Positions 343 through 61,740 of a stretch of 64,000 bases of DNA are shown here, piece by piece (positions within the stretch are counted from its first letter, which is position 1; each line of letters opens with the position of its first letter). Below the pieces are notes generated by a model. That model saw nothing but the letters and a program-made list of their open reading frames with translations. It was not told the origin of the DNA and did not search any database. Location: assembly GCA_016618385.1 (NCBI GenBank), contig JABFOP010000357.1, positions 287,545-351,544 on the forward strand, in the 5' to 3' direction. The position numbers and the translations under genes were made by a program. This DNA is from Nymphon striatum (Eukaryota).

Positions 343-725
343 AGCCAAAAAAAAAAAATGCTGTGTTTCCGGTAACGGTCTTGACAGACGGGAGGGTCGG
401 TAGGTCGGTTTTTCTTTTTATTTTTATTTTTTTATTTTTTTATTTCCTAGAAATTATATAGCCCACCAATTATACCATTTACTTCATTTGAAGGGCTATC
501 TACATTTGATTCAAAGAAATACAAGTGTTTAAATCATTTAATTTAGACAAACATCATAGAGAATTTTAGGAGGAATTTTAGGAGGTAGTTTTGTGACGTT
601 TTTTCTTTACCATTTCATGCATTTTACTATGTTTTTCCTGAATCATCATAAAAACATTTCAGTCGGCGGTAAAATTACATGGTCGGTCGGGTTACCGGAA
701 ACACAACATTTTTTTTTTTTTGGCC
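343..725. mobile_element. MITE family A, short copy (about 380 bp). The TIR is (G/A)GCC-A(n)-GCTGTGTTTCCGGTAAC. It is flanked by TTA on both sides (3-bp TSD), which fits a PIF/Harbinger-like element.
   Basis: The left end agccaaaaaaaaaaaatgctgtgtttccggtaacggtc is the inverted complement of the right end gttaccggaaacacaacattttttttttttggcc. Flanks read cTTA|agcc ... ggcc|TTAg. The same element recurs at 45557-46646. Confidence 0.75.
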
Positions 726-2639: not shown

Positions 2640-3075
2640 GTGGCACTTGATACACAGAGGGTATCTCATAAGCAACGGGCACAACTTTTATATTCTGTTT
2701 ATCGCACAACCGACAGATAGCTTCGAAAATGAATTTATTAATTAAAATAGATTTTAAAATTGATTCATTTTGTGCCAGTCAAGCTAAAAAGAAGAATAAA
2801 TTGTGGAGATGGGGAGGGGAAAAGTTTCAAAATGTAAAAGAAATGACGCAACTGAAGATAAGTGAAATTGGAGAAGCGGCTTGTTCAGTAAGCGGCTTGT
2901 TCAGTAAGCGGCGTGTCTGCAATATAAGAAATGAAAAATAAATTCGTGGTAGGCAAGATTCAAAAGCTCAGACTTCCTGTGTCCATAATCGGACACCAAT
3001 ATAGAACGTGTCCTTACGATATATATAGGGACGTGTCCTAATACAAGAAATATACAACCCCCAAATGCATTCAAT
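2640..3075 (+). repeat. Repeat family B copy (internally shorter).
   Basis: Collinear with 7741-8475, with 80-90% identity across the shared blocks (for example ttatcgcacaaccgacagatagcttcgaaaatgaatttattaattaaaatag...). Confidence 0.6.
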
Positions 3076-3358
3076 AAATTGTGTGATAAATACGATATAC
3101 AGGAGTTATTTGGTAATGTTTAAATCCAAATTAATACTATAAGTTGTTTTAAAAGCTATCTGTTGGTTATGTGATAAAAAGAATATGAAACTCGTTCCAA
3201 TTTGAAATTATATTTATGAAACTCAACGGTGTTTTATTTCAGCTCGCCAAAGCTCGCTTCATAAATCTCATATCAAATGGGAACTCGTTGCATATCCTAT
3301 ATATATTAACTTCACATTGAAATATACGGAGGTTTTCCAAATCAAAAACAGACTTGTA

Positions 3359-4019
3359 TAGATGACTTCCGAAACTGGCACCCTCTACAGGGAATGACGT
3401 CACTAGGAGGAAAATTCAAGCATAAGTTGTATCGACACACAGCAATCAATATCCAACAATAATAAACAACATTTAAATTACAAAATAAACACAGAAATAA
3501 TATCAGCATTTTTACCAAAATTCACACAATCACAGTGAAGACTATCTAGAAGCATTATAATCAAGATAAAGTATAATATACGCAGTTTTATGCCTATTTT
3601 AACAACTAAATTCGTATCTGTCCCGCAAGCAAGTTTCCTGAAAATTGACATTAATCACATAATCGAGAACTGTCTAGATTTAGTAATAAACACAAAAGGG
3701 TTCTGATAGAGAATAAAAATAAAACTATGAAAAACAATGAAAAAATTATGAAAATAAAATTATGTAAAAAATTAAAAAATTAAAAACTTTATAAAATTAT
3801 TAATTTTTTTTTTTAATTTATACATTTATAACTCATATTAAACATGATAAACATAATTAAAGGTTTATTTTTTAAAAATTTCTTCAATTTCATGGTAATA
3901 GATAGTTAATTCTGGGACACCCTGTATAGCTAGCAGCTTAAACTGAGTTTTCTACCTCCTAATGATGCAATAGTGCTGTATTTTTCTCTGTAGAGGGCAC
4001 CAGTTTCGGAAGTCATCTA
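3359..4019. mobile_element. TA-TSD MITE (about 660 bp) with perfect 32-bp TIRs TAGATGACTTCCGAAACTGGCACCCTCTACAG.
   Basis: Left junction cttgTA|tagatgacttccgaaactggcaccctctacag. Right junction ctgtagagggcaccagtttcggaagtcatcta|TAtgacc. An internal segment (3880-3950) recurs at 25685-25750. Confidence 0.75.
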
Positions 4020-4394
4020 TATGACCTTTGCTTGGGGTCGCGATCTTGTTTTGTTATCCCATCTTTGGCCGCGCATTGCGTGTACGGTGTGCGAGCAGGG
4101 CGCAAACACGGCTAAACGCTCCACTGCGTACCAACGAAATGGCACGCCTTGGCACGACGCATTGCGCGGCATTGCCGGAACAAAATTTGTGCAAGTGTCA
4201 GGGTGACATAAGCTATTATTTTTGTCTGAGCTGGTGGTGAGATAAGTGCCATGTATTTTAAAAGTTTTCTTTTCTCAATTAAGTTGTTACAATGAGGTGT
4301 CTCGAAATGATCGACACCAGGTGGCGAACCTGTAACATAAGTCTAAACTGACGGCAGTAATCATAAAACATGGCTTCGGTGGGTGGGGACATTA

Positions 4395-4995
4395 GAAACA
4401 ATTATGTAAGACAAGATGGACGTCACAGTCACGTGACTTTCATAGCAACCGTTTGTCTAGGGGCAAAAGAACTTGGTCGCTATGGCTTTGGCCGTGTTGT
4501 GAGTATGGTGATAGTGAACTTTTCCAATTCACTGCTTGTTTTAAATTATTTTAACGAACCGGATGATTTAAATCAGCCTGAAATCAATTCTGGAGTATAA
4601 ACAGGATATAGATAAGCATTAAAAAGCATGGACTTACAATTTGGTTCTGTTTGATTTGATTAAATCATGTAGCCTGTACAGTGACAGTGTACATAAATGA
4701 ACACAAATATCTCGACTCGGACAACCAACAAGCCTTTCGGCATGATTTAAATAAATCAAACATAGTCAAATTGTAAGTCCATGCTTTTTAATACCTACCC
4801 ATATTCTGTTTATACTCCATAATTGATTCTATGCTGGTTAAAATCATCCGGTAAATCAAACAAGCATTGGAAAAGCTCACAATCACAAGTGCGTTTACAC
4901 TCAACACGGTCAAAGCTATAGCGACCAATTTCTTTTGCCCCTAGACAAACGGTTCTTATGCAAGTCACGTGATAAAAGCCCGGATGTTGTCTTAC
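4395..4995. repeat. Large imperfect palindrome or foldback. Arms of about 250 bp (4395-4660 and 4740-4995) are separated by a loop of about 80 bp.
   Basis: For example acgtcacagtcacgtgactttcatagcaaccgtttgtctaggggcaaaagaa... is mirrored by ...ttcttttgcccctagacaaacggttcttatgcaagtcacgtgat. Confidence 0.65.
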
Positions 4996-5893
4996 AGAAT
5001 CAAGCGATAAAACATTACCAATTTACTGACAATCTGGTAATTTTTCAAATATTGTCATATCTACTTCAGAAAATATAAAAAATATAAATAATAAAATATT
5101 CACAAAGAGAAATTTCTTACTTAAAATATTCACAGCCTTTCAAAATCGTTGTATCCAAATAATACGTTGTTGTCTCCAGGCTCCATTTGTCGTCTGGAGG
5201 TTCATACTTAACATTCATTTGGAAATAAGAATCTCTGTCGTTTTCATTAGGAACTTTTTCTATGCGTTCAAATTTTTTACGGTTAACATTACGATCAATT
5301 CGATCAAGCTTAATTTCCATCCGAATTTTTGTCTGACTTTCCATTGAACTTTCCATACAGCTAGACTATTCAAATACAGTAGATCATAAAATATAAAAAA
5401 ACTGAATTGAAGTTTTGTGTAGTAACAAGGAATTATAGTATTAAATTCTGACTACAGTCCTTTATGTCTATTTTGTTTCAAGAATTTTATCTAAGATAAG
5501 ATAAAAATGAATAATTAAATCAAGGCCAAACAACAAGCAATCAGATTATTTGAACTCTTAAATTATTTTTTTAATTTCCCTGTTATCCGAACTGAAAAAC
5601 AGGCTCCTTGTGTCTCATTCTTTCGGTCATTATGCCAATACATACTTTTCAATCCTCTTAATTTCGTCTGGAGATTCTCGATATATGCAACTGTCTCCAC
5701 AATTCCCGATATTTACGTAAACATTCCCGTAAAAATCTCGATATTTGATTAATCTGAACGTGCACATGCCCAATTGAATTCGGAAAATTCCGAGAGATAA
5801 AAATGAACACTAAGCAATGTTTGCTATATTATCTACTCTATTTGTATTGAAATCCAGAAGTTTAATCAATTATCATCAGAAAAAGAAATAAAT

Positions 5894-6651
5894 ACCGTAT
5901 ATACCGGCGTATAAGACGACCAGCAGATAAGACGACCCCCAAATTTCACTCTAATTTTATGATTTTATCTCATATCGGGCGCATAAGACGACCCCCAAAA
6001 ACCCCCAAAAAGGGGTAGTTAAATTTACATTTTACATTTTCTGAAAATAGATATAAATTGATTTTGATTCAATATTACGAAATATCACTATTGGTAAACC
6101 GAAAGTTTAGCGCCCAGTAAATAATACGTCTCGGATAGGGTATAACATCGCAAAACCTTTACTCTTAATTACACAAAATAGGAACATAAATCAAATATAA
6201 TGTTTCTTCTAATCAGTTACTAACCTTTGTGAATGATAATTTTGTTAATATATACTATAGCTTTTTTGTGCATTTCGTGATATGGTATGCATAGACCTGT
6301 ATCATAAAAAGCGAAACCGACACCGACATAATCTGTACATTTTCGAAATTCAGGCCTTTTAGTAACATAATTCGACGACATATTTATTTAATTAAGGTTA
6401 GTAATTATAATTAGAAAAAATTAAATTTTGATTCTTTATCCAAGTATGTTGAATAATTGATTTGATTCATGTTCCTGTTTTGATTAATTAAGAGAAAATT
6501 TGTTGCTATGAGACACCTAGTCCGAAACCGTGTTATTTACTGGGCGCTAAACTTTAGGTCACTATTTTTGTGTCGGGCGGATAAGACGATCCCTTGTTTT
6601 TGAAGTTTATTTGGGTTGTTCAAGGGTCGTCTTATACACCGGTATATACTG
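5894..6651. mobile_element. TA-TSD MITE related to 1548-2601. The TIR is C(C/A)GTATATACCGG(C/T)GTATAAGACGAC with subterminal ATAAGACGACC repeats.
   Basis: Left junction aaTA|ccgtatataccggcgtataagacgacc. Right junction ggtcgtcttatacaccggtatatactg|TAtac. The internal core (6140-6250) shares a module with the family-C MITEs (55200-55290, 6960-7020, 32960-33010). Confidence 0.75.
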
Positions 6652-7740
6652 TATACTTTTTTACCCATCCAAGAGTGACGTCACAAGAAGACATCCAAGA
6701 AGACATTTTTTCCTGGAACAGCCCTTAGCTTAATATGCATATTAAAATTAGTATTTGATTATGACAAAAGGTATAATCAGAGTCCAGCAGAGAGATGAAC
6801 ATTTTCATTGTTTATATGTTAGCAGGGGATATTTTGCCAGCCACGGCAATATAGCCTGAAATCTATTTTTTGCCGGCGCTTCGCTCTGATTGGTTTACAT
6901 ATGATGTCGTTTAGCTTACAATAAATAACACGACTCGGATAGACACATCGCAACTCATTTTACTCTTAATTACACAAAATAAGAACAAAAATCAAATATA
7001 ATGTTTCTTCTAATACTCCTAGGAACCTAACCTAACCCTCCAATTTTTATTATTAGGTTATTATAATAACTATGTAAGATAGTCTGTTTTTTGTTTTAAT
7101 AGTTTCTATCAGCCTAAATCGGAATAGGTTAAGTAGGGTTTGTTTGATTACAATAAATAATAATAATTGGAGGGTTAGGTTATTATAATAACTATTTATT
7201 GTAATCGAACAAACTTTACTTGAAGGGATACTCCACTCACTTGGTGTAAGAAAAATGTTCCCAATCCATAGTACATATATCAAACAACAGTTACTGATTT
7301 TTTAAAAGTCGTGACGTATCTGTCCACAATGGCAGCTCCAACGTAGTTGATTTTAAAATACGTTTAACAATATTAAATGAACTAGAAAAAATTTTTAAAA
7401 ATCAGGAATTACTAATACGACCTATATAAATATTCATGGAACGTTTTTAGATAGTATTAACTTTAAAACATACGTACCAAAAACTTGACCGCACTGTTTA
7501 AATAACAAATTCCCATTCTGTGCAGTTAAGTTGCTATGGCTGTCTGCTGCTATTCCGTCATAGAAAGTTTAAGGGAACAAATTAACATATGGGTGTATGA
7601 ATTGAACCATCAACATTTTACAAGGCTATATTTAGTTTAAATCTAGTTCTTTTTTAAAATAAGTGTTGTGAACTTTTATAAATATTATTATATATATTCA
7701 TGGCACTGGTTATTTATTAGTTTTGATTATTTTCTTAAAC

Positions 7741-38320: not shown

Positions 38321-39339
38321 GTAAGTATAATTTTGCTTGTGATAATGGGATAGAGGTGAAATTAGTCTACAATGTGTTTTGTAATTGAAATTTGCATGAA
38401 TGTACCATATATTTTTTAATTGAGGCCAATAATAAAAAATTGTTTGTTTAGGGTAACCCGACCGACCGTAAAAAATGGCCCGACTCATATTTTTTTTTCC
38501 AGCTTTTTTGAGTGAAATAATTTTATTTCCAACTGTAGCAAAAAACCAAATATTGTCTGGAAATTATCGGTAATTTTCCCCCGCCATTGTTTGATTGAAG
38601 CGATGTAAGCCAATCTCACTCAAGTATCGCGAGAGGAGGAAATAAAAAATAAAAAAAACCGACCGACCTACATTTTTCAAGCTGGTCATGTTACCCTAAA
38701 CAAACATTTTTTTAAGGATGGCCTGAGGTTTAGGCTTTTTCCTGCACTATTGCTCATTATGAGCATCTTGACTTAACATTCAAATCTGTCACAAGAAGAA
38801 GCAAACTCCTATCTTTTACTTGACTTATTAACAAAACATGGTGTGACGGTAAATGTAGCCAAAGAATTAGGATCTTAACCTAAACACACTATAGTGAGGA
38901 GATACAACATGTGAATGCCAGACTAAAGACCTAGAAGTAGACCCTATAAAAAATATCAAAGAAGCAGTGAATAGCAGAGGGTAAATTGGTAAATTAATAA
39001 TTCTCGGTGAATGGTAAACTGCTGGCCAAAGGTGTAGCACTTGCATTTTGACCATTTTGCAGTTTGATGAGCATCTTAGTCATCCATTTGAAACGGTTTG
39101 ACCAAACATTCCATCAATTATGAAACCCTGAAACAGATTTCACACAAAATTGAAGCCCAGGATAACTTGATTTATTTTATGATCTAATGTCAGAAATAAC
39201 TATAGATACAAAACATATCATTTAGCTAATTAAACCTCATATCTTTTATATACAATCATGCTCACAGTGTGTGGTTGAAGATAAATTCACCTGCCATCTT
39301 ATTGCAATTTTTAAAATAATTTTCTTTTCTATTTTTCAG

Positions 39340-43857: not shown

Positions 43858-45556
43858 TTAAAAAAATGGAATATAATGAGAAAAATTAAAGTCAATGTAA
43901 CTCAACAAAATGGCACAGTGATTAGTATGATTACCCAATTATGCTTCCAAGCGAGTTACTTATGTAGTCCTTATATCGGCGTGTATATCATAACAACAGT
44001 GTTCATTTCAGGGCACAATTTTTCCCCCACATTTTATAGTTTAAAATTGTATTTTCAATATGCGTGTGCGATATGATATCGCGTTTTGGAAGACATGGTC
44101 GCAGTTTGAAAGCGATCGCGTGATTTCGTAATTTTGTCCTGAAATTTATCTGTTGCTGCGGTCCGTATAATTTCCAACATGCATCGATGCCCTGTGGGTC
44201 ACCCTTAGAATACTTTATAGACTTATCGTGATTGGTGTAAATGCGCGTGACGTCATTTTCAACCAATAGGAAGCAACGATTCAAGCGCATCGTCTTCATG
44301 AGTTAGAATCAAGATGGATGCGACAGGAAAAGCAAATAAAAACATGTCAAACTTATAAACTTTTTCCCCAAAGCAAGAAATAAAAGTAACAACAATTCTT
44401 CGACGTCAGAGTCAATTTATCACTCTTGAATCTGGTGTAAAACCAGAGAATGTCGAGCCTAAAGGCAGTCATGCTGGCGCTGTGCCAGCGGCCGGACCCA
44501 GGGACATGGACGGTGTCAGTGCAGCAAAACAAAAGATTAGGACAAAAATAATGAAACCTTTAAATATGTTACCTACTCTATTTTCATTGAAATCCACAAG
44601 TTCCATCTATATATAGTCAGAAAAAGAAACAAACATTTTGGGACTTCGATAAATAAAAGTAGAGAAGTCACTCAGTAAATGTGTTTACCCCAACTTTAGA
44701 TTGACGTCACAGGAACTTGTCCGGCAAGGCAAAGGTTGGTCGGTCGCCGCCTTTGCTTCGTTCGGTTGCCCAGCATATAAAAACAGTTCACACTTTTTTA
44801 AATGTCAGGGGAACATTTCCCACTTTGACTACAACCTGAAATGAACACTGTAACGATAATAAAATAATGTGGCAGAGGACATACACACGCACGTCAATCA
44901 GTTCTATTTTAGATAAAATTTGGTAATAATCTTACAAAAGGACAAATTTCTTTTAATGTGTACTACAGCTCATTAATTTTTACATATTACATGTTTGTGT
45001 CAGCATTCAACATTCTTTATAATTAGATAAGCATAGCTGCCAACATTTCAAAATGTGAAATAGTAATGTGGGGTCCAGGGACAAATTTTGCTATTTTTAT
45101 GCCATATTTTCATTCTGATTCATGTAAATAATTGTACAACCGTAACTGTTTTTTTATTCTTACTGAATGGTTATATTCCTTTGGAAGCTTTTTCCAAAAT
45201 TTTACTCTCGCATAAGTCGATCCCCCGATTTTATGTTCTAAATTTCTCATTAAAAATTTAAATTGTACGCGAGTATATACAGTATTGTTTATATATATAT
45301 ATATAATATTTACAACACAAACAGCTCAAAGAAAACCTGAGTGTGAGTTGAATGCGCACCTTGAATATAACAATTCTCTGCTTTCGCATACCTTAAAGGT
45401 TAAATCGAATACGGCTGACAATAATAAAATAAAAATAAAACCCAACTTAACCTAATTATATTATAATTCATGGTTCTTGCACCTCCATCAAGACCAAAAA
45501 TAAGACCTTTCTGCAACAGTGTTCGTCCATGTATATTATTATTTCAGCTCTATTTA

Positions 45557-46646
45557 GGCCAAAAAAAAAAAAAAAAAAAAAAAGGCTGTGTTTCCGGTAA
45601 CGGTCTTGACGGACGGGAGGGTCGGTAGGTCGATTTTTTTATTTTTTTTTATTAACTAGAAATTATATAACCCACCAATTATACCATTTACTTCATTTGA
45701 AGGGCTATCTACATTTGATTCAAAGAAATACAAGTGTTTAAATCATTTAATTTAGACAAACATCATAGAGAATTTTAACCCCTTCAGCACGACCTGTGTC
45801 GCTCCAGCTGAGCGCGCATTACGATTTTTTTTGGAGTCATTTTTCACTAAATAGTTGATCACATCATTAGTTATAAACTTCTTGAAATTTTCTAAAATAC
45901 TATTATTAGCATTACAATTTAGTGCAGGATTGATGCCACTGAAATTGCGCACTAATTCGGGGAGACTGTTTGGCCTACAATCACTAAAAATGTCGGCAAT
46001 TCTTTTCCAAGAATCAGATAGCATGACCCCGGCCGGGAGCATGACACTGTCATCTTCATGCTCAGATAAAACATCGTCACTCTCATAACTATCTATTGTC
46101 TCATTATCACTCTCCATAGGTTCATATTCAACATCACTATTATCTGAATTACTAATAGACATTGTAATTACGAATAAATCTTAAATATATTTACACTGTA
46201 AGCGAACAAATGATGAACAAATAAAACACAATGTTCATACTGAAGAAGGCTGAAGAATGCCAGATGAAACACGTTACGTAATAACAAGCTCCACCCCTTC
46301 TTTCTGATTGGTTAAATATAAATGACGTCATTATGACACACTGAATCCTCCGAAATTACATATTAGATCACATAAGCCACTCCGAATATTATTTAAACGT
46401 GCTTGATGTCATTTTTAGAATGACTAACGCACGTTAGTCATCGTAGTGCGCTATGGCGGGCACATGACTGACGCATGTTAGTCATCGTGCTGAAGGGGTT
46501 AAGAGGAATTTTAGGAGGTAGTTTTGTGACATTTTTTCTTACCATTTCACTATGTTTTTCCCGAATCACCATAAAAACATTTCAGTCGGCGGTAAAATTA
46601 CACGGTCGGTCGGGTTACCGGAAACACAACAATTTTTTTTTTGGCC
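45557..46646. mobile_element. MITE family A, second copy, inside RAN intron 3. It carries a nested 720-bp insertion.
   Basis: Termini ggcc-A23-ggctgtgtttccggtaac ... gttaccggaaacacaacaa-T10-ggcc with TTA|...|TTA flanks. The internal sequence is collinear with copy 343-725, except for the insertion at 45779-46498. Confidence 0.8.
45779..46498. mobile_element. Nested piggyBac-like non-autonomous element. It has a TTAA target duplication and TIRs CCCCTTCAGCACGA...TCGTGCTGAAGGGG (CCC...GGG ends).
   Basis: The junctions read aattTTAA|ccccttcagcacgacc ... gtcatcgtgctgaagggg|TTAAgagg. The uninterrupted host site in the empty copy (around 560-575) reads gaattttaggagg. An internal acidic ORF (45752-46162, minus) resembles a piggyBac transposase N-terminal stub. 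Confidence 0.7.
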
Positions 46647-47319
46647 TTAAATATTTGTTCAGGTCCGATAAAAAAACAGAAACGTCGCCATTTGCATTCA
46701 ACTGTCTGAGCATGCGCGAAAAGGCAACGCAAGCTCCATCTGCGGATGAAGTTCATACAGTGGTGATACTGCAGGCACGCAGCCCAAGTATTAATTTATT
46801 AAGCGGTTCGCGATTCTCCGGCCCGTTCCTCGAGTGCGAATCAGATTAAGCAAGCAGCAATTATACACAAAGCTTTACAAAGAAATGAAGCGATGGCACG
46901 GAAGCAAACATAATACCTTTTAAGACCTCTTGGTCAAAAATGCAAAAAATTAAGACTTTTCAAGGCCTTATTTTCGGGAATTTAAAAATAAAGACTTTTA
47001 AGGCCGCGCACGAACCATGTAATTATTATATAATTTGTTTAACAATTTGTTCTGTTATATAATTCGATTTTGAGCCATTAAGAATAAATTTTGTTTCAGT
47101 ATACACCTTGCCCGAGCCGTATTCGATTTAACCTTTCAGGTATGCGAAAGTAGAGAATCGCAAGCATATAACAAAAAATCCAGAAAAGCAGGATTTTTTT
47201 CCTATACTTCTGAAAAATCCGGAAGACTTACATCCCTGAATATCTAGTCTTCAATAGAATTAAGATGAACAATAATAAATAGGATAAATTGTGTGAAATC
47301 ACAAAATGAATTAAGTCTA

Positions 47320-47514
<195 letters not shown>

Positions 47515-49365: not shown

Positions 49366-49407
49366 CTTGAATGTTGGAACATTTGATAAATCAGGATTTT
49401 GAGCCAT
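49366..49407 (-). CDS. RAN: RAN GTPase coding exon 1 (start codon).
   Basis: ATG GCT CAA AAT CCT GAT TTA TCA AAT GTT CCA ACA TTC AAG|gtaag translates to MAQNPDLSNVPTFK. Compare human Ran MAAQGEPQVQFK. Confidence 0.85.
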
Positions 49408-60065: not shown

Positions 60066-61740
60066 TTTTTAACCGAATTGTAATTTAATTAGAATATTGG
60101 AAGTATGTTTAGGGAACTGAATAGTAAATTGAATCAAGTTGAACTACATAGTCTTAGATCCCTAAATTAAACAGCTATATAAAATAATTGACTATTACTA
60201 TTACATTTTGCTACTAATTGCATGTGTAAACTAGGATCTTCCACATTAACTCAATTAAAAATGAAGTATATGAACAGGCTAGACTCTGCACCCCATATGC
60301 AATTGGGTACGACCCAATTGAAATCAGTACTTTTGAACAAACTAACATATCCATCTCATTAAATGAAAACTTCTGTTTACTGTGTTTTTTTACTAAAATT
60401 TTATGCCAGATGTTTCTCTCTTTCTGTTTTTATTTTTATTTTTTTAGTTTAATTGTAATGATTCTATATTTCTGACCATGCCGCGAATGTGGCAATAAAT
60501 ATTTTCAAGCTTCAGAAGGCACTGAATTACGCTGTGAGATAAAAAAAAAAAACCTGTGTAATTTTTTCCTATGATGCCCGCAGCGCTTTCAATAGTGTCA
60601 GTAAGCAGTGCCGGATTAACCAAGTGCGGGGCCTGTAGCAGATTGATTTTATGTACAGATAATGACCGGGAAGTAATTGAATATTTTATAGATTTAATCT
60701 ACATTCTACAACAACAAAAGTCTAACGTAATGTTTTATTTGCAAGGAGAAATATAAAACTGCAACAATATCATTCAAAGGGCTTTTCGACGCATTTTGAT
60801 CTCTGCCAATTTGGCAATTATTTCAGATGAGTTCAGCTTCAGAACGTCATTTTCAATATTCAAAAGAGTTAAATAGTGTAGCCGCTCTTGCCCTACCGGG
60901 CCATCCTTTAAAAAATGTTTGTTTAGGGTAACATGACCAGTTTGAAAAATGTGGGTCGGTCGGTTTTTTTTTTTTTTTTTTTTTTATTTCCTCCTCTAAT
61001 CAGATAATGGCCTATGAAACACACAACAAAGACTAACATAAATTTTTTTTGCTACAGTTGGAAATAAAATTATTTCACTCAAAAAAGCTGGAAAAAAAAT
61101 ATGAGTCTGGCCATTTTTTACGGTGGGTCGGGTTACCCTAAACAAACAACTTTTTATTATTGGCCTTGTGTTATTTTTTAATTATCGATAGTTTTTAATC
61201 AACTTCAATTTTGTATCAGTTTTCCTCCAACTGACCATAATGAAGGGCCCTATCTGCTATGTCATATGAGACGATTTAAAATAAAAAAAATTTTGCTCAC
61301 CACGCCTTTGTGAAGACGGGGCCCATAGCAGCTGCTACATCTGCGACTACGTTAGTCTGGCCCTGTCAGTAAGGCACACAGGACACAAACTCTGACAAAT
61401 CTTCCCCTTCCAGAGCAGCTCAAATTGTCTTTAATGAATCTCTTCAAAAATAGTAATGTGATAATTGTGCACAAGTCTCAGGTAACACCTGTTATTATTA
61501 TTAAGTAAAAGTTGGACATATAACCTAACCGTTTCAAGTCTGAATAAGGAAAATGCGCATATTGCATGCATGCAGGAGCATATTTTTATTATAACATCTT
61601 ATTGTTATTTACATTAAATTTTTACTCAAGCTCCAATGTTTATTATGTTTATTTATAGCATTTCTTGTGCAAAATGGGATATGAATTTTTTTTTTTTTTT
61701 TCTCCTCTATTTGTGTCTCTTCCATCATGACATGGCTTAA

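Follow-up and report, generated by a model that had tools for sequence, protein, structure and literature searches.

A piggyBac-like element nested in a putatively Harbinger-derived MITE within coding intron 3 of RAN in the sea spider Nymphon striatum

Non-autonomous derivatives of piggyBac and MITEs of the Tourist-like kind are well known, and so is the insertion of one element into another with a paralogous copy as the empty site. Nested MITE insertions in maize and rice have been used to order transposition events, human MER85 and MER75 and bat npiggyBat are non-autonomous piggyBac derivatives (piggyBac-type MITEs), and piggyBac elements excise seamlessly, restoring TTAA. Members of the PIF/Harbinger/Tourist group, such as mPing and Tourist, use a TWA target and have GGCC or GGGC termini. 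The locus described here lies in a 64-kb stretch of N. striatum DNA (the window, meaning the whole of the sequence analysed). As in the maize and rice cases, an interrupted element together with its uninterrupted paralogue reveals the target duplication; nothing differs in principle, the guest here being a piggyBac derivative and the host a Tourist-like element, and as a nested insertion it is ordinary and opens no new question. We have strong confidence in the reading of the locus as a piggyBac-like element nested in a MITE.

The host gene was placed by TBLASTN with a human RAN sequence, which matched four minus-strand exons in the window at 76–97% identity (49283–49197, 47454–47320, 43797–43609 and 42799–42602); an upstream RAN coding exon carrying the ATG lies at 49407–49366 on the same strand. 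The outer element (family A) and the inner element (B) sit between the exons at 47454–47320 and 43797–43609, so the host intron is coding intron 3, in agreement with the first-pass annotation of this DNA, which had named RAN intron 3. The open reading frame (ORF) of B and RAN have the same orientation.

Family A is represented in the window by a copy in the RAN intron that is interrupted by B (45557–46646, plus strand) and by a short, 383-bp copy (343–725, plus strand). The first-pass annotation had described two copies sharing GGCC-poly(A)-GCTGTGTTTCCGGTAAC termini and TTA duplications, and both features were found where it had placed them. The RAN-intron copy has GGCC at 45557–45560 and 46643–46646 and is flanked by TTA at 45554–45556 and 46647–46649, as read directly from the sequence; the short copy has AGCC at 343–346, GGCC at 722–725 and TTA at 340–342 and 726–728. 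Because the sequence outside TTA is unrelated between the two copies, TTA is the target-site duplication and GGCC the terminus. Inside GGCC, the terminal inverted repeats (TIRs) of A consist of a poly(A)/poly(T) run of variable length (11–24 nt) followed by GCTGTGTTTCCGGTAAC, giving GGCC(A)nGCTGTGTTTCCGGTAAC. The 17-mer GCTGTGTTTCCGGTAAC has four sites in the window at no more than one mismatch, precisely the four ends of A, with a chance expectation of 0.11 matches at up to three mismatches. Family A is thus a non-coding element of 370–383 bp with TIRs and a target duplication, present as two copies in the 64 kb searched; beyond these, BLASTN found no further copy in the window except for terminal similarity to a sister family, A'. 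The short copy has a longer T-rich tract (380–450, compared with 45634–45656) and roughly 9–10 extra bp (tgcatttta) in its right half, at 606–620.

Element B is 720 bp long and occupies 45779–46498 on the minus strand, with boundaries set by perfect 14-nt TIRs, by alignment with an ENA metagenome contig (L001) and by the termini of full-length relatives on two other contigs (L013 and L014). Its transposase sense runs on the minus strand, placing the element's 5' end at 46498. The TIR CCCCTTCAGCACGA is found at 45779–45792 (transposase 3' end, plus strand) and at 46485–46498 (transposase 5' end, minus strand) with 14 of 14 positions matching, and inverted-repeat detection located the TTAA target-site duplications at 45775–45778 and 46499–46502; TIR and TTAA together form a perfect 18-nt inverted repeat, 45775–45792 with 46485–46502. 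These are the only two sites of the TIR 14-mer in the window (0.10 expected), and BLASTN found no second copy of B there. Both ends are of the piggyBac type, with CCC...GGG TIRs that are conserved in L013 and L014. A 720-bp second element inside A with a TIR and a TTAA duplication of its own, as earlier annotated, is therefore present at 45779–46498.

Comparison of the two A copies recovered the insertion site. In BLASTN, positions 5–226 of the short copy matched 45572–45777 at 90.1% identity and positions 224–377 matched 46499–46642 at 89.6%, the two matches overlapping at short-copy positions 224–226, the duplicated target. Taken together, A minus B is 89.8% identical to the short copy across 373 nt, and its two halves meet at the target. 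These figures come from BLASTN local matches; a MAFFT global alignment put the 720-bp gap wrongly. Subtracting B leaves 370 bp of the RAN-intron copy's own sequence, or 366 bp before B inserted, the larger figure counting the duplicated TTAA twice. At the insertion point the short copy reads TTAG (566–569; gagaattTTAGgagg compared with gagaattTTAA[B]TTAAgagg), so that an empty site, gagaatt-TTAG-gagg, can be set beside the filled site, gagaatt-TTAA[B]TTAA-gagg. The short copy had been presented as an internal empty-site control. The abutting halves bear this out, but the site is paralogous, not allelic, and one base (G for A) off TTAA.

With one A copy that contains the 720-bp segment and one that lacks it, the segment might instead be integral to a longer form of A, and the short copy at 343–725 a deletion derivative of that form. 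We regard this as scarcely credible: perfect TIRs and a TTAA duplication belong to the segment itself, the same ORF and TIR recur on 14 other contigs with unrelated flanks, and in L013 and L014 the full-length homologues terminate at identical bases beside TTAA with no A around them. BLASTN found no family A sequence in the foreign loci L001 and L013–L015. A protein search found the B ORF, whole or in fragments, among the gene models of N. striatum; these lie on at least 14 contigs, told apart by their lengths, with at least 15 copies of B in all and with hypothetical proteins at 78–94% identity to the ORF. After the translated TIR (..VVLKGL) the protein continues as KFSMMFV in the window, II in P0001, NVFKIL.. 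in P0002 and KQDLGQ.. in P0014. The codon after TTA starts with A in all four, which fits TTAA; at N. striatum copies outside the window, TTAA is read back from these translated flanks of gene models. The finding that had been singled out as fatal to the nested reading, a 720-bp segment belonging to A throughout the genome, is thus the reverse of what the differing flanks on at least 14 contigs indicate, and by this evidence B moves independently of A.

The copies also differ in age. The window ORF, taken without its private 6-amino-acid insertion, matches P0001 at 98.4% identity, P0014 at 99.2% and both P0017 and P0018 at 100%. B falls into two subfamilies with distinct deletion junctions, ..NDVINYLVKNDSKKNRNARSAGATQVVLKGL in subfamily 1 and ..NDVIVLVVLSCDRIARSAGATQVVLKGL in subfamily 2, and the 98–100% identity among copies implies that subfamily 1 amplified very recently. 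Set against the roughly 90% identity of the A copies, it makes B young and A older, in agreement with the nesting order; the insertion order first proposed, A and then B, is supported by the nested structure and by B being the younger by identity. The accompanying proposal that two superfamilies were recently active applies to B, at 98–100% protein identity, but not to A, whose copies are about 10% diverged.

The same difference in age bears on a further alternative, in which A and B moved together through the A termini and B was later precisely excised at 343–725, with TTAA subsequently becoming TTAG. Precise excision is a known property of piggyBac and the short copy reads TTAG exactly at the site, yet the A copies are about 10% apart while B copies are 98–100% identical in protein, which makes B far younger than the split between the A copies. 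We consider joint movement followed by excision highly improbable, if less so than an integral segment, and retain insertion of B into a pre-existing A.

The origin of B is indicated by its 136-amino-acid acidic ORF (45752–46162, minus strand). The last nine codons of this frame lie beyond B: its tail is a read-through of the 3' TIR (VVLKG, from GTCGTGCTGAAGGGG), then of TTAA and then of family A. A Pfam scan of the ORF returned no match, DDE_Tnp_1_7 (PF13843) included, because only about 17 residues of that domain remain. A relative encoded on L001, P0003, is 70% identical to the ORF over 83% of the ORF's length and carries PF13843 (9.6e-8), the domain beginning at residue 86. In DNA, B and L001 align across TTAA and the 5' terminus, the 5' UTR including a block TGTGTCATAATGACGTCATT, and the ORF; homology stops just past ..FKKFITNDVINYLVK-ND, where L001 goes on into the transposase core. 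Residues 1–107 of the window ORF are 38% identical (E = 5e-25) to the transposase N-terminus of L013, whose frame continues after one in-frame stop as P0023, with DDE_Tnp_1_7 at 4.4e-57. P0023 has a Cys/His-rich segment, CRVCYPKRKDTRTCCIGCPDTPGLCSIEHFQIFH, at its C-terminal end, and the L013 relative has a weak match to zf-Tnp_2 (20.4 bits, under the 24-bit cut-off). A Cys-rich C-terminal domain is absent from B.

From the homologue alignments, the transposase coding remnant comprises residues 1–107 (45842–46162, minus strand), made up of the acidic N-terminus and the first ~17 residues of DDE_Tnp_1_7. The deletion junction and the retained subterminal 3'-end sequence follow at 45793–45841 (minus strand), as placed by alignment with the 3' ends of L013 and L014 and by the loss of homology to L001 after ..VK(CI)ND. 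What B has kept is about 336 bp of 5' UTR/promoter region at its 5' end, about 107 codons of coding sequence and about 55–60 bp at its 3' end including the 14-nt TIR. By these alignments the ORF is a piggyBac transposase N-terminus, as one of the two first-pass suggestions had it, with homologues that continue into DDE_Tnp_1_7, and B is, on the same grounds, an internal-deletion derivative of a piggyBac element and not an autonomous member. Lacking the DDE catalytic and Cys-rich domains, B would be mobile only with a related full-length transposase supplied in trans.

The other suggestion, a novel passenger gene, was rejected on the homologue alignments, which identify the ORF as transposase N-terminus. 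A broader form of the idea gives the ORF a function as a passenger or regulatory gene, for example by modulating transposition as a truncated acidic peptide. In its favour, many copies have an open frame, and a private 18-bp insertion in the window copy is in frame. Youth would explain the open frames, the copies being 98–100% identical; moreover, the ORF and the transposase N-terminus are collinear, homology ends at the deletion junction, the tail of the ORF is a read-through into TIR and host DNA that varies among copies, and the second subfamily has a different junction. A functional passenger is accordingly very unlikely, and we treat the ORF as a transposase remnant.

The private insertion (46020–46045, AGCATGAC-CCCGGCCGGG-AGCATGAC) has no counterpart in L001 or in any of the protein relatives. 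Made up of an 8-bp direct duplication around a 10-bp palindrome, it resembles in sequence the footprint that a third transposon, one with 8-bp duplications, might leave on excision.

Relatives in which much of the transposase gene, or the whole of it, survives, in some cases with an in-frame stop or a frameshift, were found on L013 (ERZ26696514, contig ctg303669), L014 (ERZ22157276, contig ctg13435l) and L015 (a Tara Oceans metagenome scaffold). All three are long eukaryote-like contigs within ENA 'metagenome' assemblies. The L013 element (2758–6523) starts with TTAA and CCCCTTCAGCACGATGAC and ends with GGTTGTGCTGAAAGGG and TTAA; the L014 element (4486–6856) starts with TTAA and CCCGTTCACTACGATGAC and ends with TCGTGCGGAAGGGA and TTAA. 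L013 shares an exact 18-nt terminus with B in the window, although the N-termini of the two transposases are just 38% identical. When metagenome contigs were scanned for exact occurrences of the TIR sequence TTAACCCCTTCAGCACGA, there were 11 matches, each a chance 18-mer around which the similarity to B went no further. The search for autonomous elements nearer to hand was negative: no N. striatum protein with DDE_Tnp_1_7 was among the relatives found by protein search, and the ORFs of at least 150 amino acids in the 64-kb window included no autonomous element. The window as a whole produced no match to Rfam.

Two subterminal 22-nt palindromes (ATGACTAAC-nnnn-GTYAGTCAT) adjoin the 5' TIR of B (46420–46485, minus strand), and the same architecture is seen in L013 (2772–2850), L014 (4500–4580) and L001 (95–175). 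A palindrome of the form ATGAC-xxxx-loop-xxxx-GTCAT directly follows the 5' TIR in B, L013 and L014 and is degenerate in L001; a second copy lies about 20 nt further inward in all four. The arms vary among elements and are self-complementary within each, which amounts to covariation: ATGACTAAC/GTTAGTCAT in B, ATGACGATA/TATCGTCAT in both L013 and L014, and AGGGCAAAC/GTTCGCCCT in L001. By analogy with the subterminal repeats of Trichoplusia ni piggyBac, the palindromes are probably transposase-binding sites. In four elements, a TIR with paired palindromes and covarying arms provides a small point of comparison for the recognition of piggyBac ends. Further inward, the block TGTGTCATAATGACGTCATT is conserved between the 5' UTR of B (46250–46330, minus strand) and that of L001 (235–262); it includes a CRE/ATF-like palindrome, TGACGTCA, and from its sequence may be a promoter element of the transposase gene.

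B resembles the T. ni element (IFP2) in its TTAA target, CCC termini and subterminal repeats near the TIR, and the full-length relatives share with IFP2 an acidic N-terminus and DDE_Tnp_1_7, and may share a C-terminal Cys-rich domain, the zf-Tnp_2 match lying below threshold. It differs from IFP2 in a TIR that is dissimilar apart from the leading CCC, in an N-terminus that bears no Pfam signature and in having no catalytic domain. With MER85, MER75 and npiggyBat, B has in common the TTAA duplication, the CCC...GGG termini, a DDE domain lost through internal deletion and a presence in many copies that are presumably mobilised in trans. Unlike them it keeps an open N-terminal remnant of about 107 codons and a long 5' UTR, and the TIR CCCCTTCAGCACGA with its paired ATGAC..GTCAT palindromes is specific to this lineage. 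The label first given to the inner element, a nested piggyBac-like MITE, is apt as to piggyBac, but internal-deletion derivative fits B better than a MITE of the classic non-coding kind.

The affiliation of A is less firm. Like mPing and other Tourist-like (PIF/Harbinger) MITEs, it is small and non-coding, with GGCC-initial TIRs and a 3-bp TTA duplication; it differs from mPing-type MITEs in the long variable poly(A)/poly(T) run directly inside GGCC and in having an animal host, a sea spider. TTA, a 3-bp TWA target duplication, flanks both copies. By analogy, from the GGCC termini together with a TTA duplication of 3 bp, we moderately favour a Harbinger derivation. No TE-like ORF of at least 150 amino acids that could mark an autonomous partner of A was found in the 64-kb window.

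A sister family, A', complicates the assignment. It has two copies in the window in mutually opposite orientation (38424–38723 and 60899–61165), recognised by related termini of the form GGCC-A-rich-TGTTTGTTTAGGGTAAC; the subterminal motif CCGACCGACC is common to A and A', and by this sequence likeness A' is clearly related to A, the group having four elements in 64 kb. TGA stands on both sides of one A' copy; the other has the unmatched pair CCG/TTG. Such flanks speak for an origin of A in another superfamily with 3-bp duplications (Zator, CACTA-like or Academ-like), whereas TTA at both A copies and GGCC-initial termini fit the PIF/Harbinger/Tourist pattern, and the A termini do not begin CACTA. 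We judge an origin in another superfamily unlikely, though with an appreciable chance of being correct, and keep the Harbinger assignment for A as the preferred one.

In the history that we propose, a non-autonomous A element of about 370 bp would first have inserted into RAN coding intron 3, duplicating TTA, probably with a transposase of the PIF/Harbinger type provided in trans. Much later, the 720-bp non-autonomous B would have inserted into a TTAA within A and duplicated it. B itself descends from an autonomous piggyBac element through an internal deletion that kept the 5' TIR, the palindromes, the ~336-bp 5' UTR/promoter region, ~107 codons and a ~55-bp 3' end with its TIR, and its transposition would depend on a related full-length transposase acting in trans.

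For N. striatum, the sea-spider genome paper PMC12220506 refers to a draft assembly and no other (Jeong et al. 2020, as given there), and neither piggyBac nor Harbinger occurs as a term in it. The A and B families are probably undescribed. In a chelicerate genome that is poorly characterised, the locus defines two transposon families together with a sister family, and it documents very recent activity of a piggyBac lineage in a sea spider.

A practical consequence concerns annotation, as the open frame of B contaminates at least 14 published N. striatum gene models. Models with an internal B ORF are P0008, P0011, P0013, P0014, P0015, P0017–P0019, P0021, P0022 and P0024, and those containing B include RpS15a, RpL10a, Atg16-1, a Sec1-family protein, mitochondrial poly(A) polymerase, lark and GATAD1; the RpS15a model has 359 amino acids, and about 130 are expected for ribosomal protein S15a. 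It is improbable, at the level of a slim chance, that the B family amounts to more than debris, either through splicing of its ORF into host transcripts or as a truncated transposase fragment that regulates an autonomous element. If exonisation were true, many proteins would gain an acidic module of about 100 amino acids. Several models enter the B ORF at one phase-1 junction, at which H, N, D or Y is encoded by xAT and is followed by NSDV(E/D)YEP. This shared junction is more likely a gene-prediction artefact than recurrent exonisation, and it matches an acceptor, ttcag/AT AAT AGT, at about 46140–46150 on the minus strand.
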